A stretch of 64,000 bases of DNA from assembly GCA_000004695.1 (NCBI GenBank), contig CM000152.2:4256001-4320000 (forward strand), in the 5' to 3' direction. The first letter of the stretch is position 1. Each line of letters starts with the position of its first letter. This document shows positions 1,593-41,366 of the stretch, in pieces. Below the pieces are notes generated by a model. It saw only the letters and a program-made list of their open reading frames with translations. It ran no database searches and had not been told where the DNA came from. This stretch comes from Dictyostelium discoideum (lineage: Eukaryota). Both the position numbers and the translations under genes were made by a program.

Positions 1593-4272
1593 ATGGGAGG
1601 TTCATGGAAAGATAAAGCTTCTTCATATATTATTCAAGATTCATTAATTAGTAGTTCACAAGTTAAATCTCTGTCCAATAGTGCCATAGAAAGTTGTTTA
1701 AAAAATTTAGGAGTATGTTATTAAAAAATAAAAAAAAAAAAAAATAACTTTTTTCTTACTTACTATTATTATTATTTTTTTTTTTATTTTATTTTTTTTA
1801 TTTTTTTTTTTATAGTATATAAGTTACTTTTCAAATTCTATAAATGAAATGTTAAGTAAATGTGATAGTAGATATATAATATCAATATTATATTTAGTTG
1901 ATGGTATATTTAGAGTATTAAATAAAAATTATGGTGAAGAGAATAAAAAGAAAGAACCATTATTTTCACAATTAAATGAATCATTCTCTTTAATGTTACA
2001 ACAAAATGAAAAGAAGATTCTAGGCTCAACACCAGAAAAAGATTGTATAAAATTAATTAAACTACTTCAAATTTGGTTAAAACGTAATGATTTAGATCAA
2101 CATTTATTAAAGAAATGGGTTTTTAGAATTTCAACAGATTTAAATATTGATATAGATAATTTAGATTCATACCAAACTAATAATAATAATAATATAAATG
2201 AAAACAATACAACTATATCATCATCATCAACATTTGTAAATAAAAAGAGAACATTAGATAGTAATTTTGATATTGATGATATACTTGAGCCATCATCATT
2301 TAAACATCAAAAAGTAGATAATAGTATTGGTATAAACAGTATTAATAATAGTAATAAACTATTACAACAACAACAACAATTAAATCAATTATTAAAAGAG
2401 AATTTAATATATGGATTACCAATGGAGATGTTATTTGAAATTTTATCGAATTTATCAGTTGTAGATTTAGTTAAAGTTTCAAAAGTTAGTAAATTCTTTT
2501 ATAGTGTTGTAAATAATTTACCAAGTTGTACGAGTATATCATTTGAAAATATGATTTTACCATCAATTGATATGCAAAGATCATTGATTCAATTTAATTT
2601 AGTTGTAAATGTAAATCTATCCTTTAGTAGATTCGTTACAAATGATGTTATAATCACATTAGCAAAACATTGTAAACATTTGGAATCTTTAAATGTTAAT
2701 GGTTGTTTACAATTGGATTTAACCTCGATGATTCAATTATTAAGACATTCAAGAAATTTAAAATCTTTAAAAATGTCTCAAGTCGTTTGTGATGGTGTTA
2801 TGGAATTATCAAATAAATTAAAAAACACATCACAAAATTCAAATACTACTACAACAACAACCACTACCACAACAGCATCAAATACAAAACATAAAAAACA
2901 ACCAATACCATTTGGTAGATTAGGAAGATATCCAAATAAAAGAGCGAGAGCAAGAGAAAGAAAAGCAAGATTAAAACAAAAACACCAACAACAACAACAA
3001 CAAGCTAAAACAAGAAGAATAAAAGATAAAACCAAAGAGGTATTATTAGCTAAAGTTTTCTTTGATTTATTATTTAATATTAAGAATGGTATTATTGATG
3101 ATTCTGATGATATTGATGATGATAATAATAATATAAATAATAATAATGAAAATAAAAAAAAAGTCACTAAAAAGAAAAAGAAAAAAGAAGTCAAGGGCAA
3201 TGCTAGTGGTGAATTAGATCAAGAATTTATAGATTTAGTAAGTGATTGTGAAATGCGTGAACATGATGAAAATGAACAGAAACATATAGATATAGAAAAT
3301 AATTGTAATAATAATAATAATAATAATAATAGTAATAATAATAGTGATGATAGTAATGAAGAAGAAGATTATGAAACTAGTGAAGAAGAAGAAGAAGAAG
3401 ATAATGAAGATGGACATGGCTTTAATTATGATGATTATAGTTATCACTATGATTATGATTATGATGACGATGATGATGAATATAGAATTGGGAGAGGAGG
3501 AGGAGGAGGAGGAGGAGATGGAGGAGAAAAAGCAGTAGGAGAAGGAGGAGGATACAGTAATTCTCCTGTTAATAATAAAAAAATTAGATTAAGAGAATTA
3601 GATATTAGTTGTTGTCATCCATTAATATTTTTAATACTTCAAAATTATAACAAACCATTATCAACAAGTTTAGTTAAATTAAATATTGATTGTATGTGTG
3701 CTTCAATTGAAATTGGTGGTTATGCCGCTGGTATTAATAATATTTTTAGCAATTTTCCATTCCTATCAAAATTAAATTCATTATTTAATCCTATAATACA
3801 TAATAATAATAGTAATACAACAACAACAACAACCACCACATCAGCTACAAATACTAATGAATCATCGTTAACGAATAATATTCAAATGGTACCAAATAAT
3901 TTTAAAATTATTGTAAAATCAGATTCAATTTGGAGACGATTAATTTTTAATGATTCAAATGGTTTCGAAAAATTGATATTACAAAAACAATCACAATATC
4001 TACAACAACCAAATTCAGAATATTCAATTAAAAAATTTAGGAAATATGTTAATAAACGTTATTTATTTGGTACAACTTCAATTTATATGGCTTGTAAATA
4101 TGGAAATTTTAAAGCAATTGATACTTTAATGTCATTAAATTCAAATAATAACAATAGTAATAATAATTATAGTAATAATAATAATAATAATAGTAATAAT
4201 AATAATAATAATCATAATAACAATAATAATAATAATAATAATAATAACAATAATAATAATGATAATAGTAAC

Positions 4273-9800: not shown

Positions 9801-10690
9801 AGTTTCTACTATAAAATAATATTCATTTTTAATAATTTAATTATATTTATTTATTTATTTGTATATATATATTTTATTAATTTATTTATTAATTATTTAA
9901 AAGAGGAGAGAAAAAAAAAAAAAAATTAAAATAAAAAATAAAAAAAAGGTTTGATTTAATATGAGACATTTGAATTTTTTTATTTTTATTTTTATTTTTT
10001 AATTTTTATTTTTTTTTATTTTTTTTTCCTATTGATTTTAATTACCTGACATATCTAGATATTTATAAATTTATTATTATTTAGTTTATTATGTTTGATA
10101 TTGTATTATTATTTTATTTATTATCTAATTTAATTTTAGTTTTTTAAAATCTTTATATTTTTTTTTTTCACTTTTTTATTTTATTTTTATTTTGTAAATG
10201 AACTCAATGAATTTTTTAATTTAATTATAAAAAAAATTATTTGAAAAAAAAAAAAAAAATAAAAAAAAAAAAAAAAAATTGTTTTTTTTTTTTTTCAAAC
10301 AAAATATGCATTATTTTTATTTTTTTTATTTTTTTTTTTTTATTTATTTTCTTTTATTTTATTTTTATATTTCCTTTTTTTTTTACCAAAATAAGAATGA
10401 TAAATGTTTTTTTATTAAACCAATTTAAATTGGCATTTTTTTATTTTAAATGAACAATCTCCATTACAAAAAATAAAATAAATTATCAAAAAAATAATTA
10501 ACCTTCAGTATTCGTCCATCGGTTAAGTTTTATCAATTTTGTCTTATTTATAAAAAATAGAGTTTTTTTTGAATTGGGTACCGAATGGATGAGATCTTAG
10601 GTCACACAGATTTAACCAAACTTTCCTACCCTTGCTTTAAATTATAAAAAATAATTTTAATGTAATATTAAATTTGAAAATATCAAAAAT

Positions 10691-10763
10691 GCCCGGCTAG
10701 CTCAGTCGGTAGAGCGCCAGACTCTTAATCTGGTGGTCGGGGGTTCGAGCCCCCCGTTGGGCG
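10691..10763 (+). tRNA. tRNA-Lys (anticodon CUU)
   Basis: gcccggctagctcagtcggtagagcgccagactCTTaatctggtggtcgggggttcgagccccccgttgggcg. This is 73 nt with a cloverleaf, A-box, B-box (ggttcgagccc) and anticodon loop ct-CTT-aa. It is followed immediately by a T-run (Pol III terminator). Confidence 0.92.
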
Positions 10764-10859
10764 AATTTTTTTCCAATACAACCACTTGTACGAAGTTCGT
10801 ATTTTTGAATGGTATATTAATATGAAAAAAAAAAAAAAAACAATAACAAAATACGTAAT

Positions 10860-12061: not shown

Positions 12062-12092
12062 TGTGATCTATCTTATACTAAATCTAAAATTT

Positions 12093-12165
12093 CGCCCAAA
12101 GGGGGGCTCGAACCCCCGACCACAAGGTTAAAAGCCTTGCGCTCTACCGACTGAGCTATCTGGGC
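12093..12165 (-). tRNA. tRNA-Lys (anticodon UUU), copy 1
   Basis: The reverse complement reads gcccagatagctcagtcggtagagcgcaaggctTTTaaccttgtggtcgggggttcgagcccccctttgggcg. This is 73 nt with a T-run downstream. Confidence 0.92.
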
Positions 12166-12222
12166 ATTTTTGGAAATTTCGAAATTAAAAACAACTACAG
12201 AACGATTTTTTAAGCCTGGAAG

Positions 12223-14290: not shown

Positions 14291-14314
14291 TATCTTATAC
14301 TAAATTTAAAATTT

Positions 14315-14387
14315 CGCCCAAAGGGGGGCTCGAACCCCCGACCACAAGGTTAAAAGCCTTGCGCTCTACCGACTGAGCTATCTGGGC
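14315..14387 (-). tRNA. tRNA-Lys (anticodon UUU), copy 2. The mature sequence is identical to copy 1
   Basis: The same 73-nt sequence is present. The shared 3' flank is tgatctatcttatactaaat, but this copy has no exB. Confidence 0.92.
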
Positions 14388-14636
14388 ATATTTGAAAATT
14401 TTAATTTTTTTACAAAATCACATTGATTTTTAATGACAATCGAAAATTTAAAATTTTAAATAAAAATAAAACAAAAGCAATAGAAATCTTTTTTTTTTTA
14501 AAAACAATTCTATCAAGATTTGAATTGAAATTGATTGAGGTATTAACTTCATTCTAAACCTAAAAAAAAAACTTTTTTTTAAATTTTTTTTTTTTTTTAT
14601 TTTTCTATTTTTTTTTAGAAAACACATCGCACCACC

Positions 14637-16790: not shown

Positions 16791-21032
<4,242 letters not shown>

Positions 21033-21761
21033 TCTTGTAATTGTTTGTTTTATAAAAATAAAAAAAAGAAAAAAAAAAAAAGTTGAAAAAAAAAAAAAAA
21101 AAAAAAAGTAAGAAATTACGGGAAAATTAAGTACTTTTTTTTTTTTGAAACTAATTTTTTGAAGATCGTAATAATAATAACAATATAATTATAGTTATAA
21201 TAAATAATAATTAATAATAACAAAAATATAAAAAGTATAAAAATAAAAAATGTTTATTTAAATTACATCCAAAATTTTCACTCATCAAACAAAAAAAAAA
21301 ATAAAAATAAAAAAAAACATTGATATCAATCAACAGGACTAAAACAAATAAATTTGGATAGGTTCGCTATCTATATTTTACCCTTTCTTTTATTAAAAGC
21401 TGTGTTTGTTGTTTCATTTGAATTTATGAAAATATTAATAATTTTTTCACTTTTTTTCGTTTTATTTTAAAAGTTTTTTTTAAAATTATTGAAATAAAAA
21501 TAAAATAAATAAATAATTATAATAAATAAAAAAAAATCATTGAATCACTAAATCAAAGAAAAATAAATTAAATTTAATTTAGTGATCAAAAACCAGGGTT
21601 TTGATCGTATTCATTGAAAAAAAAAAAAATAAAAAAAAAAGTAAAAAAATAAAAAAAAAATCCTCCAACTTTTCAAACAGCGCATTACCACCCATCAAAA
21701 AAATCTTTGAAATTGGGAATATGTTTTGTGTAAATATTGTTCTAAAAAAAATTTAAAAAAA

Positions 21762-21800
<39 letters not shown>

Positions 21801-22173
21801 AAAATAATTTTATTTTCGTAAAAAAACATTAATGGTTTTCCTTTTAAATTGTTATTTGAAATCATTTTTCACATGTGTAAAATAAAAATAAAAATAAAAA
21901 TAAGATAAATATTTAAACTAAAAAAAAAAAAAATTGGGTTATTTAAAAAATAAAAAAATAAAAAAAAATTTGAAGATCGATATATGTAAGGTGTATACAC
22001 TTGAAAAAAAGAGAGAAAAATACCCAAAAAAAAAAGAATTTTTACCACACAGGCACATAACCTTTTTTTTTTTTTTTTTACATACACACACACAAAAAAA
22101 AAATTTTTTTTTAAATTATTTTTATTTTTATTATTATTTATTAAATTTTTTTTAATCACTTTATTTTATTATA

Positions 22174-22206
<33 letters not shown>

Positions 22207-22354
22207 CACCACCAAATTCACTGAAAAAAAAAGTAATGATACCAATAATAAAAACAATAATAATAAATAATAATAAATTGATATAAAAAAATAAAATAAA
22301 AAAAATAAAAAAATAAAAAAATAAAAAAAAAAAATAAATAAAAATAAAAGGGAA

Positions 22355-23200
22355 ATGCCAAGTAAAGAATTTATTATTCCATTAATTTTATTATGTTTTT
22401 ATTCAGTAAATGGATTTGTAGCAGTAATATCATCATTGGTAGAATTATTTATACACAAAGCATCATGGAACTCAATCAAAATATTTTTTTATAGTCTATT
22501 AATTTTACAATGTTTATGTAGATGTATTATTATTGGTTGGGGAATGATCGAAACTGTTCAAGGTGGTGAATTTTATAGTAATTTTCCATCATTATTATTT
22601 ATTTCATATGCTGGTTTAGTCGCATTACAAATGTAAGATTAATAATTATAATTCCATATGCAATGGATTTAAACAATAAAATAAAAAAAAAAAAATAAAA
22701 AAAAAAAAAAATATTAACACACACACAAATAAATTAATTATTTATTTTTTTATTTTTTTTTTATTTTAATATTTTAGGATTCAATTTTTACCAAATGATA
22801 ATCAATATTTATTATTATCAGAAGGTAAAAAAAATAATCATAAAGTTAAAGTTGGAACCAACATTTTAATATTTTTTAATTTATTTATGTATTTTGGAAT
22901 GTTTTTATTATTTGGAATTGCAGAGAAACAAGTTGGAAATTCAACTAGTTTTAATCATCATGGTAATCATAATTCTACAACATCTACATCAACTGATGAA
23001 ATACCTTTGGTTTCAACAGAAGTTGGAGAATTATATCTTTTTGGTGACAAAGATCCAATTTATATTGTATTGGATTGTTTTTATTTTGTATGTTTATTAT
23101 TATTATTAATTTTTCATTCTTATGTTGGTTGGAAAACTTATAAAAGAAATAAAGATTTATTTGGTATAAAAGTAAGTTTTAAGAAAAAAAAAAAAAAAAT

Positions 23201-23236
<36 letters not shown>

Positions 23237-24707
23237 TATTGATTATTAATTTTAAAAAAAATAGTTAAATGTAATTCATTTAATTTTATTAATTTGTATA
23301 TTTATTAGATCATTATTAGTAATAATTGATCCATCATCACCAAATAATTCAATATTACATATTGATACAGAATCATGGTTAATTTATATTTATACTATAT
23401 CATATTATGTAGTTGGTGAGATTATACCGGGAATGTTGTTGATAGTGATTGAATTTCTATTACCATATCATAAAAGAAAAGATTTTATAAATATTGGTGG
23501 AGAATTATCAAGTTATCAAGATGTTTGGAAATCAGAGAATATTGCAATTCATGAATTGCTAGGAATGGGTGGTAGTGGTGCTATGGTGCATAAATGTACC
23601 GTAAAGAAAGGTCCATTACGTGGTGGTACTTTTGCAGTGAAAGTAATGAAAGATTGTACAAATGAAGATATTGAATCGTTAGAGAATGAAATTAGAGTCT
23701 ATGAAAAACTAAAGTCACCCTATATCGTCTCCTATCAAGGTTCAAGTAAAGTCGTTGGTTCAAGTGGTCAAATCTTTGAGATTCGACTATTCATGGAATA
23801 CATCCCACATACATTAGATAAATATCTATTAGCAAGGTCAGTTTGTGGTGATTCAAATGGTGGTGGTTCAAGTAGAAATTTAAAAAATTATTTTTTACAC
23901 ATGCAAGAATATCAATCTTCACCACAATCTTCAATTTCATATTATCAGAATAATAATAATAATAATAACAATTCACCATTAATACAACCACAACAACAAC
24001 AACAATATGTCTATCCATATTATTTTAGATATAGTCAAGTTGTTTGGTATTTATATCAAATTTCAATTGGTTTGGATAATTTACATGCAAATAAAATTGC
24101 TCATAGAGATTTAAAATCAAATAATATTTTTGTAACTTTATCAGAGAGTGAAGTTAAAATTTGTAAAATTGGTGATTTCGATATCTCTAGATCTTTTAAT
24201 AATCCAAAAGTTTTAAATGTTTTATCAAATCCAACAGCTTTACAACAACAAAAATTAAATAATTTCTTTCAATCAGCAACAACAACAACAACAACAGAAC
24301 AAACAACAGAGCCAATAGAGGTAGCAGCAACAACAACACCTCAAACAATTCATTCAGCATTTCAACATGATATTTTATCTTTTGGTTTTATTGTTTTAGA
24401 CTTTTTAACTTTATCAAACTATAGTTGTTTTGACTCAAAATTTGATACTTCAAACTACTATGATGATGATAAATTCAATAATAAATCAAATACAAAAATT
24501 AAAAAACCAGATTTACCAGATTATATAAAAAAAGATGAAAAACTTTGGGAACCTGTCATTCAACTTTATAAAAGTTGTACATCTGATGATCCAAATAAAC
24601 GACCTTCTTCACTTGGTGTTAAATTTCATTTAGCCAATCTTTATAAAGATATTATAGAGTCTGGCACTGAAGTTTGGTCAATTGAAAAAGATTCTTCAAG
24701 TAAATGA
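22355..24707 (+). CDS. Multi-pass (about 7 TM) membrane domain fused to a C-terminal Ser/Thr protein kinase domain. Exons 22355..22632, 22778..23171, 23265..24707
   Basis: Exons 1-2 encode about six hydrophobic helices (IIPLILLCFYSVNGFVAVISSLV, IKIFFYSLLILQCLCRCIIIGWGM, NFPSLLFISYAGLVALQMIQFL, NILIFFNLFMYFGMFLLFGIA, IYIVLDCFYFVCLLLLLIFHSYVGW). Exon 3 opens with another (LIYIYTISYYVVGEIIPGMLLIVIEFLL), then kinase subdomains GMGGSGAMV, FAVKVMK, HRDLKSNN and DFD. Splice sites (GTAAGA/GTAAGT donors, AG acceptors) keep one frame with no stops. Confidence 0.7.
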
Positions 24708-24769
24708 AAAATTAAAAAAAAAAAATAAAAATAAAAATAAAAATAAAAATAAAAATCTAAAAATAACCC

Positions 24770-24808
<39 letters not shown>

Positions 24809-25653
24809 ACCTCTGGTGAAAGTAATAATTAAATTTAATTTTATTTATTTATTTATTTCTTTTATTTTTTTTTTTATTAGAATATTTAAATCATGGATTT
24901 TGGTTTTTTTAAATTATTCATTCTCTTTATTATTTAAAACAAAATGACCAGGTAAAAGATCGGCCATGATCGGCCAAAAAAAAATATATATATTTTTTTT
25001 TATATATTTTATTTTAAATTTATAACTAATCCGGTATGAATTGGTGTATTATTTTTGACAAAAAATTCATATATATATATTTTTTTTTTTCTTTCTTTTT
25101 AATTAATTTGTAAATTTGAAGGATAGCCCTGGGAACAAAAAACTGAAATATTCCACTGCATGTCTGTTTGGGTTGAGATTTTGTATTCTTTTTAAAATTG
25201 AATGAATTAAGTGAGCCCTGATGTTTTACTCTTTTTTTATTTGGTAATTGTTTGTATTGGTTTATTAAATTTGGGAAAATATTTCTCTCTATGTTGTGTA
25301 TTCTGTGGATTTTTAAAAATCTTCTTTTATATTCTTTGATTTTTTTTTTTTTAATTATTATTATTATTATTATTAACTTCAATTGAAACTTTCATTTTGT
25401 TGTTTTAATTTTTTTAAAAAAAAAAAAAAAAAAATAGAAAACAATGAATTTAAAAAAAAAAAAATGTGTAAAATTTGGAGAGTAATTATTTATTTTTATT
25501 TTTAATTTTTAATTTTTTTTTTTTTTTTTTTTTACTTTTCTTTTTTTTTTTTTTTTTTCGTTGGTGATTTGGGATGTATAAAAATTTTATAAAAAAAAAA
25601 TTTTTTAGATATTTTTTTTTTATAAAATTTTTTTTTTTAATTTTTTTAAATTT

Positions 25654-25685
<32 letters not shown>

Positions 25686-26029
25686 ATTATATTTGGTGGC
25701 TTATTTTTTTTTTTTTATTTATTTTTTATTTATTTATTTTTTTTTATTATTATTATTTTTTTTTTATGTTTTTAATTTCAATTTTATTTATTAAAAATTA
25801 ACTCAAACATATTTTTTAAAAAAACTTGGAAAAAAAAAAATAAAAAAAACATTGTAAATCTATAACACAAACCACACACAAAAAAAAAAATAAAAAAAAA
25901 AAAGTCAAAAAGTCACAAGAAATAAATAAATAATCAATCTCATGTATATTCGTTAAAAAAAAAAATAAAATTAAAAGCTTAAAAATTAATTTCATAGTAG
26001 CAACAAAAAAAAAATAAAAAAATAAAAAA

Positions 26030-27583
26030 ATGGATAAAAATAATAATAATAATAATAGTAATGGGGGACATGAAAATTTATTTAAAGATCTTCAAAATCA
26101 AAAAAGAGTTCAAAATCCATCATTTAGTTCTGGTCAAAGTAGAACAGTGCCATCAATTTCTGCTCGTGGCGTGGCACCAATTAGCTCATCATCAAGTTCA
26201 TCATCTATTTCAACAACTAATAACACTACTACTACTACTACAAGTGGTACTGGTAGTACATCATCACCAGTATCAAAAGGTGTACCATTAATACCAATTG
26301 GTGCATCAAGATTTAAACAACAACCATCAACAGATGTTTGGAGATCAGCAAGAGGACAACAATTATCAGAATCACTTTGGTCGTCTTTTAAACAAGCATT
26401 GCAAAATTCTCAAAATTCTCAACAATCTTTATCACAATCTTTATCACAATCTCATTCAACAAATAGTGAGGTATGTATAAATATATATATATTTTTTAAA
26501 ATAATTTTAATTTTTACTAATTATTTTTATTAATTATTTTTTTTTTTTTTTTTTTAGATTAATAATATTTTATTGGAGTTTGTAAAACATTATAATTCAG
26601 AATATGATAAATGGAATGTTGAAATGGGAGTTGATTATGCTAATACAAAAGTATATGGAATTAAATTATATTGTACACCAGTATTAGATATCCAAACCAC
26701 ATTATATTTGACTAGACAACTTTGTTCTTATGTTTTAAATTTATCAAAGGCATTAACTGATGATAATTTGGATATACCAGATGGTTTACATTTCATATGT
26801 TTAATAAACATTTTATCAAGATCACCATTGAATTCAACATTATTACATCAAGAGAATGCATTGGCACATCCATTTCAAGCAGCACGTCTTGCATCTTATA
26901 AACTCTCTTCTTTTAGAGACAAAAATAATCCATCCTTTACAAAATGGTGGCCATACCTTAAAGTTTTATTAGCTAATTGTTGTCAAATTGCTACAAATTT
27001 CGTACATGATAAACAAAATTTATCTTTTAATTCTTTAAGGTATGGCAATGTAAATAATAATAATAATAGTAATAATAATAATAATATTGTAAATAGTACC
27101 AGTTTAAGTAGTGGTAGTTTACTTTCAAATGGTGGTGGTATTAGTACTAGTGAACCAGAGATTTCACCATCAACATCACCATTAACAGGTACAACTCCAA
27201 CATCACCATCAAGTTCTTGGTCATCATCTTCAATAACTAATCATCAAATTCAACATCAAATTTTAATGCAACAACAACAACAACAACAAGCTCAACAACA
27301 ACATACTCAACAATACTTTAATACGATTGGACAAAGTAGTAGTTATTCCTATACAAACGTTATCAATGGTGTTTCAACCAATAATAGTACAATAACAGCA
27401 ACAACTACAAGTAATTTCTTAATTCAACATATATTTAAACTTGGTACAATTTCAATTTTGATGGATTCTTTACAATTCTTTAATGATTTCTTTAAAACTC
27501 TTCAACCAAAAGATTCAGAAGATTCATTTAGATTATTGATTATTGATACATTAGGTATTTTAATTAGTGGTAATGGTGGTTTG

Positions 27584-27625
<42 letters not shown>

Positions 27626-28540
27626 GCAACATCAACAAATACAACACCAAATACAATAATTAATAATACAACAATAAATAACAGCGGTTTAACAAATAGT
27701 ATTAATAATAATAATGGTGGTAATAATAATTTAAATAAACTTAAAGAACCAGGTAACGAAATTAAAACAATTATAAATTGTATTGGTATGAAAGCGTATA
27801 TTAAAACAAGTAAAAAAGTAACATCATTACAAAACGAATTTCAATTTCAATTACATGTTATTAGGGTGATTAAAGAATTGATTTCAAATAATTTAAATAA
27901 TGCAAAATATTTTAATTCTCATAGAGGTTTTGAAAAAATTCAAGAGGTTATATTATGGGTAACTCAATGTTTTAAACCAACAGATTCACATACATTCACT
28001 GATGAAAGTTGTTTAGATTTTGATACTTCAATGCCTGCTCAAGAATTATCTGCCTTATTAATTGGTGCAACTTCTTCAAATTCTTCTAATAATCTACCAA
28101 ATTTAACAAATTCAATATCATCACCCTCACACTCATCCTCCTCCTCCTCCTCAACAACAACAAATATTAATAATAGTAATAATAATACAGCAACAGCAAC
28201 AACAACAACAAGTAATGTAATAATTCCACCAACAATGTATGATAGTTTAAATTCAGTTTTAAATTCATTAAAATATACGACTTATTCAGAGAAATCATCA
28301 TCACTTATAAAATCACCACCAATTATTGTTAAAAGAAGTAAAGTTGTACAACTTTCACAATTGTTTCAAGTTTTACATTCATTTTCTTTTACACTTGTAC
28401 CATTTTCAAAAATTCAAACTAATTCCTCCTCTTCTTCTGGTAATTTAAATTACAATATATATTCCTCCTCTTCAGCATCATTTATAAATAATAATAATAA
28501 TAATAATAACTGTAATATATCATCACCAACAAATCAATCT

Positions 28541-28616
<76 letters not shown>

Positions 28617-28858
28617 TTTTACCAAGATCAAATTCATCTTATTCAATATTTAGAAGAGGTGATAGTTTAAATACAATCATTGATATCAATCAAGATAATA
28701 ATAATAGTAATAGTAATAGTAATAATAGTAGTACACTTGATATTTTAAATAATAGTCAAGATACAATTGTAGATAATAATAATGGTAGTAATATTGATTT
28801 TGAAGCAACAATAACTACTAATACAACAACGGTCGTGACAGCAACCGTTAATTTAACA

Positions 28859-28895
<37 letters not shown>

Positions 28896-30338
28896 TGATT
28901 GATGGTAATACCGAAGTAACTGGTGGATCAGCACATAATAGTTGGTCAAGTTATACAAATATAAATGAACAATTTCAACAATTATCATTAACATCATCAA
29001 CGACAGCAACAGGATCATCACCAACATCACCAACAGCATTTCAATATCAATCAAAACCAATTGATAAAATGTTTGTGAATACATTATTAATTGAAACAAT
29101 TTTTGAAAAATTATTTTCACAATTAAATCTTAGTGCTTTAAATGAAAATCATTCAACAACTTCTTCTTTACCAATTAGTCAAAATTTAAGTGATGATTCC
29201 TCAAATACAAATACAAATAATAATAATACATCATTTGGTAAAATTTATATTTCAGATAATTTACAACAAAATCCAAACACTGATAAATCATTATCATGTG
29301 GTAAAATTTTTAATAAGATTAAAAATTCAACACCAGAACTTCAATTACAAATAATTGAATATTTAATTAAATTAGTAATAGAGAATCCATATTGTTTACC
29401 AATTCTTAGAAGATTTAATCTTTGGGAATTAATATTTTCTGATAATTTTTATTATTCATCACCACAAGCAACTTTAAATGATGATGATATTGAATATTTA
29501 TTAAATTCAACCACCACTACCACCACCTCATCATCAACTAATATTTCAGAAGAACAATTAAAGAAACGTAAATTATATTTATTTAATGGATTAAGATTAG
29601 GTTGTTTAGGTTTAATTCAATTCTTTTCAACATTTAATAATAGAGATAATTTTGAAGAGATTTGTATAATTTTAACAGAGATGAGAAAATCATTATTAAA
29701 ATCACCAGCATCAGTGATTGAGTTATGTCAATTATTAATTAATATCACTAAATCAAATCCTCAAGGTACAATTCAATCATTGATTAAATTAAGAATTTTC
29801 CAACAAATTCCACAAATGATTCAAGTCCTATTCAAATATGAACAGGCTAGTAACTCTCAATTTGGTTTATTACATAAGAAAGCTAGAAATATCATTTTCT
29901 CTTATCTAGGCCAATTGATAGTTCACGAAGAATTATCTTATCATGCAGTTGTTGAAAAAGAATTGATAGATGTTTTATTTTTATTATTAAGAAAAGTTGA
30001 AACTAAAACTTTTTCAATTACTCAAATATTTTTCTTAATGAAATTAAATGTTTCATCTTCTTCACCATCAGTTACAACTTTATTATCTTCTTCTTCACAA
30101 GTATTAAATTCATATCAACAACAACAACAACAACCACAACAACAATCATCACAACCACAACAACAATCATCACAACCACAACAAATTCCACAATCCCAAC
30201 TACAACAACAAAATCAAACACAGTCATTACAATCATCATCATTATCATCAACATCATTATTATTAACATCACAACATCAACAACCATCAACATCATTATT
30301 ATCAACATCACAGTTTTCATCATCATCATCCTTATTGC

Positions 30339-30421
<83 letters not shown>

Positions 30422-30441
30422 CCACAACTACTACAACAAAC

Positions 30442-30484
<43 letters not shown>

Positions 30485-30706
30485 GTTCAAACTCCATCAT
30501 CACCTCAAACATTAGCATCATTATTAGGAAATTCAAGTTCAAATACATTAACATCATCATCATCAACATTATCATTAAATGAATCATCAACATTATCAAG
30601 ATTACCAACATCAAATAATTTATCAGAATTATATAGGACATATATTTCCGAGTTATCAATGATTAAAGAAGAGACATCATGTACTTATGATTTTAAATTT
30701 GATTAA
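26030..30706 (+). CDS. Large low-complexity protein (about 1530 aa) with globular N- and C-terminal regions and an ARM/HEAT-like C-terminus. Exons 26030..26470, 26558..30706
   Basis: Exon 1 ([18 protein letters not shown]...STNSEV) ends at a GTATGT donor. The acceptor ttttAG at 26557 continues [21 protein letters not shown]... in frame. The track M at 26573 is a TTG. Non-repetitive segments ([23 protein letters not shown]; [56 protein letters not shown]) argue for real coding. The stop lies only 8 bp before the next gene's ATG. Confidence 0.6.
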
Positions 30707-41270: not shown

Positions 41271-41366
41271 TGGAGAAGAAGGGTATCGATCCCTTTACCT
41301 TATGGAACTCTGATTTTCGTTGCTGTTTATGCAAACCATACGCTCTACCATATGAGCTACATCCCC
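41271..41366 (-). tRNA. tRNA-Ala (anticodon UGC) with a 23-nt intron after position 37
   Basis: The reverse complement reads ggggatg-ta-gctc-atatggta-gagc-g-tatgg-ttTGCa[taaacagcaacgaaaatcagagt]t-ccata-aggta-aaggg-atcgata-ccctt-cttctcc-a. G3:U70 is the universal Ala identity pair. Anticodon stem tatgg/ccata is perfect, and the T-stem aaggg/ccctt pairs. One U6:U67 mismatch and A54 are atypical. A T7 terminator lies right after the 3' end. Confidence 0.6.

Follow-up and report, generated by a model that had tools for sequence, protein, structure and literature searches.

Seven membrane helices and a divergent protein kinase domain in one polypeptide: an analysis of the Dictyostelium discoideum gene 7tmk2

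Introduction

Do three exons of a Dictyostelium discoideum locus encode a single protein in which a bundle of membrane helices leads into a protein kinase, and if so, what might such a protein do? The question was raised by an initial annotation of the window, that is, the whole stretch of 64,000 nucleotides that was analysed, in whose numbering all positions below are given. The locus 22355-24707 (plus strand) is 7tmk2 of D. discoideum (DDB_G0281331, DDB0220006, UniProt Q54U65). In an exact-sequence look-up, its spliced product was identical over all 704 aa to EAL66962.1/XP_640911.1/Q54U65 (AX4).

The gene and its seven-helix/kinase architecture are already known; because both have been on record since 2006, in annotation and in print, the locus is no discovery. 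Goldberg et al. 2006 (PMC1420674) catalogued 7TMK2 with an identical N-terminal sequence and with FAVK, HRDLKSNN and DFD, placed it in the class Other/Other-Unique and marked it 'a', predicted active. The GPCR-bigram survey of van den Hoogen et al. 2018 (PMC5784254) also includes it. In a literature search for 7tmk2/7tmk1, the 2006 kinome paper was, among the papers searched, the only one to name 7TMK2 in its main text, and no experiment on the protein was found. What is added here to that record is the seven-helix topology, the independence of the fusion from splicing, the range of orthologs, the selection acting on the domains, the loss of the APE motif and a lead to the plant TOM proteins.

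Results

The exon structure proposed in the initial annotation, three exons with junctions 22632/22778 and 23171/23265, was borne out by GT..AG introns, an in-frame coding sequence and the match to the annotated protein (Table 1). The junctions read 22632/GTAAG...TAG/22778 and 23171/GTAAG...TAG/23265. Conserved protein sequence spans both of them, LQM/xQF at intron 1 in all orthologs and FGIK/LNIIHL at intron 2 (the slash marks the junction). The product length given there, 688 aa, was wrong: the spliced coding sequence of 2115 nt encodes 704 aa. An Rfam search of positions 21000-26100 (E up to 1) returned no RNA family, so that nothing points to a non-coding explanation.

Table 1. Features of 7tmk2, with positions in the window
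Feature	Position	Strand	Content	Support
Exon 1, aa 1-93, phase-2 end	22355..22632	+	Start codon, TM1 (aa 7-32), TM2 (41-65), most of TM3 (72-95)	D. citrinum exon 1 equally long, 278 nt
Intron 1, 145 nt	22633..22777	+	GTAAG...TAG, 90% A+T	D. citrinum: same position and phase
Exon 2, aa 93-224	22778..23171	+	TM3 end, Lys-rich inner loop 2, TM4 (111-145), outer loop 2 with two N-x-S/T sequons (N147, N158), TM5 (186-221), basic inner loop 3	Hydropathy, AlphaFold2
Intron 2, 93 nt	23172..23264	+	GTAAG...TAG, 95% A+T	D. citrinum: same position
Exon 3, aa 225-704 and stop codon	23265..24707	+	TM6 (224-245; part in exon 3), TM7 (262-289), linker, whole kinase domain	Single open frame
TM7	23376..23459	+	Family-invariant YYxxGEIxP...LP (Y271, G275, E276, P279, P291)	Alignment, profile comparison
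Cytosolic linker, 28 residues, aa 290-317	23460..23543	+	LPYHKRKDF...; TM7 to kinase N-lobe	
Protein kinase domain, aa 318-690	23544..24662	+		Pfam, motifs, dN/dS
Gly loop, aa 324-332	23562-23588	+	GMGGSGAMV	
FAVK, aa 347-353	23631-23651	+	FAVKVMK	
AlphaC Glu366	23688-23690	+		
Poly-N/Q insert, aa 404-477	23802..24023	+	Low complexity	pLDDT <50; ortholog alignment gaps
HRDLKSNN, aa 504-511	24102-24125	+		
DFD, aa 528-530	24174-24182	+		
Activation-segment insert, aa 534-585, 52 residues	24192..24347	+	Thr/Gln-rich	AlphaFold2, alignment
Subdomain IX	24366-24386	+	HDILSFG	

A gene model of this kind might be an artefact that wrongly merges two genes, one for a small multi-pass membrane protein and one for a kinase. 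A bacterial-style ORF list does divide the locus into three ORFs, and it had been claimed that only splice reconstruction reveals the fusion. This claim did not hold, because the open frame of exon 3 alone contains part of TM6, TM7 and the whole kinase. Secondly, the ortholog of Tieghemostelium lacteum carries seven helices and the kinase (aa 8-644) in a single uninterrupted exon, and in Ceratiomyxa fruticulosa a single assembled transcript (Trinity) spans both domains. Thirdly, the intron positions of D. citrinum are identical to those of D. discoideum 7tmk2, and both flanking genes are syntenic. The ortholog search that had been suggested for this locus found the same architecture across Dictyostelia and in Ceratiomyxa (8 orthologs), with conservation of sequence across both junctions. 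Mis-joining of two genes was therefore rejected, being effectively refuted by the T. lacteum exon and the D. citrinum introns, and we give it a negligible chance of being correct. Supported instead is the architecture proposed at the outset, a single polypeptide in which seven TM helices lead through a linker into a protein kinase domain of Ser/Thr type. By these comparisons the fusion is real and independent of splicing, and it is old, being common to Dictyostelia and Ceratiomyxa. The ratio dN/dS was 0.13 in the TM domain, 0.046 in the kinase core and 0.22 in the inserts, values that indicate purifying selection on both domains.

The number and orientation of the helices were then considered. 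Where the initial annotation had predicted six to seven TM helices, seven were obtained by hydropathy and by modelling, more than three in either case. Seven Kyte-Doolittle peaks exceed 1.6, and seven long helices appear in each of two AlphaFold2 runs (pLDDT 72 and pTM 0.73 for the TM-only model), the model of 7TMK2 being built on 7 sequences only. In the topology predicted with these seven helices, the N-terminus lies outside and the kinase on the inner side. Lys and Arg residues number 15 in the predicted inner segments vs 3 in the outer ones, and the N-x-S/T sequons of the TM domain all (3/3) fall in predicted outer loops. It is suggested that the N-terminus and the three sequon-bearing loops face the outside or the lumen, and that the kinase, like the loops rich in Lys and Arg, lies on the cytosolic side.

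The identity of the seven-helix domain was less easily settled by database comparison. Pfam 7TM families, among them the canonical GPCR families 7tm_1, 7tm_2, 7tm_3, Dicty_CAR and Frizzled, gave no match to D. discoideum 7TMK2 at E up to 10, and none scored above its threshold among the family members scanned. Among PDB sequences, a profile of the TM family had no match (E up to 10), and cAR1, rhodopsin and the beta2 receptor each scored 0 bits or less against that profile. On reading the sequence, the canonical GPCR motifs DRY and NPxxY were absent. A phmmer search with aa 1-303 against 1.84 billion representative proteins yielded 4 matches, all of them slime-mould orthologs, with no oomycete or choanoflagellate protein. 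In the Foldseek search with the 7TMK2 model, the top 50 matches, weak ones, were almost all GPCRs, and the predicted bundle has a GPCR-type fold. Taken together, the domain is confined by sequence to the slime moulds (Eumycetozoa), and its modelled fold is GPCR-like.

One sub-threshold similarity deserves a separate treatment, that to the plant THH1/TOM1/TOM3 proteins (PF06454, formerly DUF1084), which have seven TM helices of a length similar to those of 7TMK2, but are without a kinase domain. Against PF06454 (gathering threshold 25 bits), the T. lacteum protein scored 20 bits (E 4.9e-4) and that of H. album 15.6 bits, both sub-threshold and collinear; six other family members scanned, D. discoideum included, gave no match. 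The majority-consensus sequence of the TM family also gave no match to PF06454, which weakens the lead. In the reverse direction, the 7TMK2 TM profile scored 14-21.5 bits against plant TOM3/THH1 in two collinear pieces, with 14 decoys at or below 6.7 bits, the plant set being >80% identical and thus effectively one observation. TOM3/THH1 and 7TMK2 have in common the Arg of TM2, P(S/A)L.F at TM3, C..IR in TM6 and YYxxxEIxP...LP in TM7, and TM7 is the segment of 7TMK2 closest to the plant proteins. Alignment of the two families by hhalign gave P 0.0044 and a probability of only 7.9%. When the TOM alignment was permuted in blocks, TM7 alone accounted for about 22 of the 28 hhalign score units; most of the score thus comes from this one helix, so that the collinear alignment over the full length is suggestive and unproven. 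That the seven-helix domain is a highly diverged THH1/TOM1/TOM3-type domain is, on these similarities, a tentative reading to which we give slightly less than an even chance.

In the kinase part, GMGGSGAMV, FAVKVMK, HRDLKSNN, DFD and the poly-N/Q insert of the initial annotation were all located in the translated product. Pfam detected the kinase alone in 7TMK2 (aa 318-673). Pkinase (PF00069) matched in two pieces with 74.3 bits vs a cut-off of 31.7, and PK_Tyr_Ser-Thr (PF07714) reached 67.9 bits vs 23.1, so that both models score alike. The catalytic residues are G324-x-G-x-x-G329, K350, E366, H504-R-D506...N511 and D528. The poly-N/Q insert lies in the C-lobe, ahead of the helix preceding the catalytic loop, and is far shorter in the more distant orthologs. 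At aa 534-585, the Thr/Gln-rich low-complexity insert takes the place of the P+1 loop and APE region of canonical kinases. Of the 'complete kinase catalytic domain' that had been claimed, the catalytic motifs are thus present, while the APE motif is missing and the Pkinase match is broken in two. APE is found in none of the dictyostelid copies and is kept in Ceratiomyxa only; its loss is thus confined to dictyostelids.

These departures raise the possibility of a pseudokinase or scaffold, in which the kinase fold would bind nucleotide or partners without phosphorylating and would signal by recruitment. Several features speak for it: DFD stands in place of DFG in seven of the eight orthologs and DFN in T. 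lacteum; the dictyostelid copies are without APE and the P+1 loop and bear the 52-residue insert in the activation segment; HRD is changed to HGD in T. lacteum and to HND in Acytostelium; the Gly loop of H. album is degenerate; and the best solved relatives, JAK and RAF, match at just E about 1e-8. However, E366, D506, N511 and the Mg-binding D528 are invariant in 8/8 orthologs (Dictyostelia and Ceratiomyxa), and the beta3 Lys is present in every one, with a two-column offset in the Acytostelium and Heterostelium copies. The low dN/dS of the kinase core, below that of the TM domain, also argues against loss of catalysis. Non-RD kinases, moreover, can dispense with the HRD arginine. The curated kinome table, finally, marks 7TMK2 as active (PMC1420674). 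A pseudokinase is on balance unlikely. The kinase of D. discoideum 7TMK2 is probably active, with an atypical substrate-binding region (DFD, APE and P+1 loop missing, a long low-complexity activation segment). Given the changes HGD and DFN in T. lacteum, HND in Acytostelium, DFD and the missing APE, catalysis may be weak or absent in certain lineages.

Discussion

The best explanation of the locus, in which we have high confidence, is that 7tmk2 codes for an integral membrane protein of 704 aa, with seven helices and a divergent eukaryotic protein kinase domain. Fusions of 7TM domains to kinases, which the initial annotation had placed in amoebozoans and plants, are known to the cited surveys from acanthoecid choanoflagellates, sponges, oomycetes and amoebozoans, and from no plant (PMC12716839; PMC5784254). 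The nearest case for comparison is 7TMK1 of the same species (DDB0229939), which also combines an N-terminal multi-pass domain with a C-terminal kinase. Its kinase, in contrast, is of the TKL/CZAK group, with VAVK, HRDLSTKN and DFG, and with the TM profile of 7TMK2 its TM region scored -3.1 bits, no better than the decoys. On both counts paralogy of the two proteins was rejected, and most likely they are independent fusions.

In oomycetes, the GPCR-TKL class of GPCR-bigrams (PMC5784254; PMC6033456) likewise carries a protein kinase on the cytosolic side behind a 7TM domain, and the two Dictyostelium proteins are listed as similar to these bigrams by van den Hoogen et al. 2018 (PMC5784254). The oomycete kinases are TKL, about half of them with a C-terminal DEP domain; 7TMK2 was classed as Other/Other-Unique by Goldberg et al. 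2006. The choanoflagellate GPCR-TKL/K and GPCR-TK and the sponge GPCR-TKs (eLife 2025, PMC12716839) have the same domain order as 7TMK2. According to that study, GPCR-kinase fusions arose repeatedly, the 7TM domains are unrelated by the authors' clustering, and none has been functionally characterised. RpkA, likewise from D. discoideum, is a GPCR-PIPK in which a 7TM domain is joined to a catalytic domain at the C-terminus; its output domain, unlike that of 7TMK2, is a lipid kinase (PIPK) and not a protein kinase. It is the sole fusion of the 7TM/C-terminal-catalytic-domain class with knock-out phenotypes.

How might 7TMK2 work? The heptahelical domain may be a sensor, candidate cues being small molecules, lipids or some property of the membrane. 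The cytosolic face of TM5-TM7 would then change in conformation or oligomeric state, and this change would be relayed through the short linker to the kinase, which would phosphorylate Ser/Thr on itself or on substrates. Such a protein would provide a route from receptor to kinase within one polypeptide, for which heterotrimeric G proteins would not be required. To this mechanism as a whole, from sensor through linker to kinase, we give even odds.

Alternatively, the heptahelical domain may be no receptor at all, and may act as an anchor, a transporter-like or an organelle-targeting module (e.g. vacuolar or endosomal, like plant TOM1) that would do no more than hold a constitutively regulated kinase at a given membrane, a reading that we consider rather unlikely. 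In line with it is that no ligand-binding GPCR family matched. The possible kinship with THH1/TOM1/TOM3 points the same way, as Arabidopsis TOM1 is found on the tonoplast (PMC10576174) and did not bind the G-alpha subunit GPA1 (PMC2530877). On the other hand, the membrane-embedded polar residues E30, R56, R239 and E276 and the outer-loop motif GGEFYSNFP are kept across the 7TMK2 family, more constraint than a passive anchor needs, and the dN/dS of the TM domain likewise argues against a mere anchor.

Should the sensor be a TOM1-type domain, Eumycetozoa would show an otherwise function-less 'plant' 7TM family wired straight to a kinase output. TOM1-type proteins would then be suggested as ancient membrane sensors, and Dictyostelium would be a tractable system for finding what they sense. 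More generally, the fusion of a 7TM domain to a kinase recurs among eukaryotes and could couple a receptor to phosphorylation without G proteins. Because D. discoideum is the most tractable organism with such a fusion, 7tmk2 is a sensible target for knock-out and biochemistry.

Gene model and identity of 7tmk2

The window has a G+C content of 23%, typical of Dictyostelium, and within it the three exons of 7tmk2 join in frame into a coding sequence of 2115 nt. Both introns (145 and 93 nt, A+T 90% and 95%) read GTAAG...TAG, which bears out the junctions proposed in the initial annotation. The spliced product is 704 aa long, not 688 aa as had been given there. A bacterial-style ORF list does yield three separate ORFs here (93, 115 and 424 aa), but the further claim that only splicing reveals the fusion does not hold: in exon 3 one frame stays open from just after the acceptor TAG, and it covers the linker and the entire kinase together with the whole of TM7 and part of TM6. 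The membrane-kinase fusion is therefore independent of the splice reconstruction. In D. citrinum both intron positions and phases are as in D. discoideum, and the flanking genes match on both sides. A mis-joined gene model was ruled out, because in the Tieghemostelium lacteum ortholog all seven helices and the kinase (aa 8-644) lie within one exon. The T. lacteum gene has one short 5' intron only.

An exact-sequence look-up identified the product as D. discoideum AX4 DDB_G0281331 (EAL66962.1, XP_640911.1, UniProt Q54U65). According to the kinome paper of Goldberg et al. 2006 (PMC1420674), '7TMK2 has no close homologs'; in the supplementary table, DDB0220006 7TMK2 is entered under Other/Other-Unique as a kinase predicted to be active, with the N-terminal sequence found here and the motifs FAVK, HRDLKSNN and DFD, the same as those singled out in the initial annotation. 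Van den Hoogen et al. 2018 (PMC5784254) also include the 704-aa 7TMK2_DICDI in their list of proteins that resemble oomycete GPCR-TKLs, and a literature search found no main-text mention of 7tmk2 outside Goldberg et al. The locus is a published, annotated gene; the junction of a 7TM domain with a kinase is confirmed and its interpretation supported, but the finding was already known. Such fusions are reported from amoebozoans, oomycetes, choanoflagellates and sponges (PMC12716839; PMC5784254), and plants, which had been counted among their holders, are not named. According to the eLife 2025 survey (PMC12716839), the function of GPCR-kinase fusions has not been characterised for any member.

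Positions of 7tmk2 and of other features in the window
Feature	Position	Strand	Remarks
7tmk2, three exons	22355-22632, 22778-23171, 23265-24707	+
Upstream neighbour	16791-21032	-	single 1413-aa ORF
Downstream neighbour	26030-30706 and beyond	+	begins about 1.3 kb past the 7tmk2 stop codon
Three tRNA-Lys genes within 3.7 kb	10690-10764 (+), 12092-12166 (-), 14314-14388 (-)		one anticodon CUU, two UUU
tRNA match	41271-41366	-	Rfam, 96 nt, 49.1 bits; not reported by ARAGORN
3' intergenic patch of 7tmk2	24920-25250		A+T lower than surroundings

In the upstream neighbour, long homopolymer tracts (poly-N, poly-Q) occur several times, and a segment rich in Cys and His (CNFHSTQDITFLCKTCNSVPCCNICVTSEKYHRGHS) resembles a B-box-type zinc finger; the D. 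citrinum counterpart is syntenic and about 59% identical. The downstream neighbour is orthologous to a BEACH-domain protein (neurobeachin/Lvs-type) of 3973 aa in D. citrinum, with 81-97% identity in those pieces that were compared. In the short intergenic patch, GATCGGCC...GATCGGCC stands in tandem and some stretches are unusual in containing G+C; the patch matched no Rfam family at E up to 1. Equal Rfam scores of the two UUU tRNA-Lys copies (72.6 bits each) point to a recent duplication; the 96-nt match is probably an intron-containing tRNA gene.

The membrane domain

Six to seven transmembrane helices had been predicted, and seven were found by hydropathy and by both AlphaFold2 runs. Kyte-Doolittle peaks above 1.6 (19-residue window) lie approximately at aa 7-25, 43-61, 79-97, 122-140, 187-205, 227-245 and 268-290, with no comparable peak in the kinase half. 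Seven long helices were modelled both in the full-length protein (pLDDT 56) and in aa 1-298 (7-sequence alignment; pLDDT 72, helices 85-94, pTM 0.73). Lys and Arg number 15 in predicted cytosolic segments vs 3 in outward ones, and all three N-x-S/T sequons (N147, N158, N251) fall in predicted outer loops; the N-terminus is likely outside and the kinase inside.

With E values allowed up to 10, D. discoideum 7TMK2 still matched no 7TM family in Pfam. A phmmer search with aa 1-303 against 1.84 billion representative proteins gave four matches, all 7TM-kinase orthologs (D. citrinum, T. lacteum, Acytostelium subglobosum, Heterostelium album). Membrane-embedded E30, R56, R239 and E276 are invariant across orthologs, as are the motifs GGEFYSNFP and YYxxGEIxP...LP.

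The domain may have a remote relative in the plant THH1/TOM1/TOM3 domain (PF06454, formerly DUF1084). D. discoideum 7TMK2 and the family consensus do not match PF06454; the T. lacteum (E 4.9e-4, 20 bits where the cut-off is 25, TM6-TM7) and H. album (E 0.011, below threshold, TM4-TM7) orthologs gave collinear matches. A plant TOM3 query (95% identical to A. thaliana TOM3) matched PF06454 at E 1.5e-148. With hhalign, the 7TMK2 family aligned collinearly over TM1-TM7 (P 0.0044, probability 7.9%) with a plant alignment of 20 sequences from search results, in effect nearly one sequence; reversed controls gave P 0.22 and 0.58, and block permutation assigned about 22 of 28 score units to TM7 alone. 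Against the 7TMK2 family HMM, plant TOM3/THH1 reached 14-21.5 bits over two collinear segments (TM1-3, TM5-7), and each of 14 decoys (rhodopsin, bacteriorhodopsin, beta2 receptor and cAR1, forward and reversed, plus reversed TOMs) 6.7 bits or less. Shared features are the TM2 Arg, P(S/A)L.F at the start of TM3, C..IR in TM6 and YYxxxEIxP...LP in TM7. Against the relationship speak the missing PF06454 matches of D. discoideum 7TMK2 and the family consensus and the narrow plant set, and we put the chance of remote homology a little short of even. TOM1 is a tonoplast seven-pass protein required for tobamovirus replication (PMC10576174) and has been regarded as a possible GPCR of plants, with negative GPA1 binding in a split-ubiquitin assay (PMC2530877). 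The heptahelical domain of 7TMK2 might be a non-sensing anchor on an internal membrane, which we consider rather doubtful; a sensing role is preferred.

The kinase domain and its evolution

Over aa 318-673, Pfam reports Pkinase (74.3 bits) and PK_Tyr_Ser-Thr (67.9 bits); the closest solved kinases are JAK2, JAK3 and RAF, at E of only about 1e-8. The domain had been called complete. The Gly loop, K350, E366, HRDLKSNN and D528 are indeed retained, the DFG glycine is replaced by Asp (DFD) and the N/Q-rich insert already noted is present (74 residues), but the APE motif is missing. A second, Thr/Gln-rich insert of 52 residues lies in the activation segment; both inserts have low model confidence.

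The architecture is shared by orthologs in D. citrinum (93-94% identical where residues align), Polysphondylium violaceum, T. lacteum, A. subglobosum and H. album, and beyond Dictyostelia in Ceratiomyxa fruticulosa (one complete Trinity transcript). E366, D506, N511, D528 and F529 are invariant in an eight-sequence alignment. A beta3 Lys is present in all eight (in Acytostelium and Heterostelium it aligns two columns off), and the HRD Arg varies (HND in Acytostelium). DFD is the norm; only Ceratiomyxa keeps APE. Its activation segment has canonical APE and DIWSFG, yet DFD, so that DFD is ancestral to the family and APE loss dictyostelid-specific. In the T. lacteum ortholog (2001-4123 of its genomic stretch), HGD stands in place of HRD, DFN in place of DFD and Lys at the subdomain XI Arg; this copy may be further along the way to a pseudokinase than its relatives.

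Between D. discoideum and D. citrinum, dN/dS (Nei-Gojobori) is 0.11 overall, 0.13 in the TM helices, 0.046 in the kinase core and 0.22 in the inserts. Both halves are constrained, the kinase core most strongly, which favours an active enzyme rather than a decaying one. That 7TMK2, with its DFD and missing APE, is a pseudokinase or scaffold seems improbable beside this constraint and the retained catalytic residues; such a reading and that of a non-sensing anchor are not exclusive and can both hold.

Relation to 7TMK1 and a possible mode of action

The kinase of 7TMK1, the other 7TM kinase of D. discoideum, is TKL/CZAK with DFG (PMC1420674 table), unlike the Other-Unique kinase of 7TMK2 with DFD, and its TM region does not resemble the 7TMK2 TM profile (-3.1 bits). 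Most simply, the two would be independent fusions, which fits the view that 7TM-kinase fusions arose repeatedly (PMC12716839).

7TMK2 is one polypeptide with seven helices and a cytosolic kinase whose catalytic core is intact, and both parts have been under long-term purifying selection. In the mode of action held most likely, its heptahelical domain would sense something at or in the membrane, the change would be relayed via the 28-residue linker, and the kinase would phosphorylate Ser/Thr targets with no need of a G protein.
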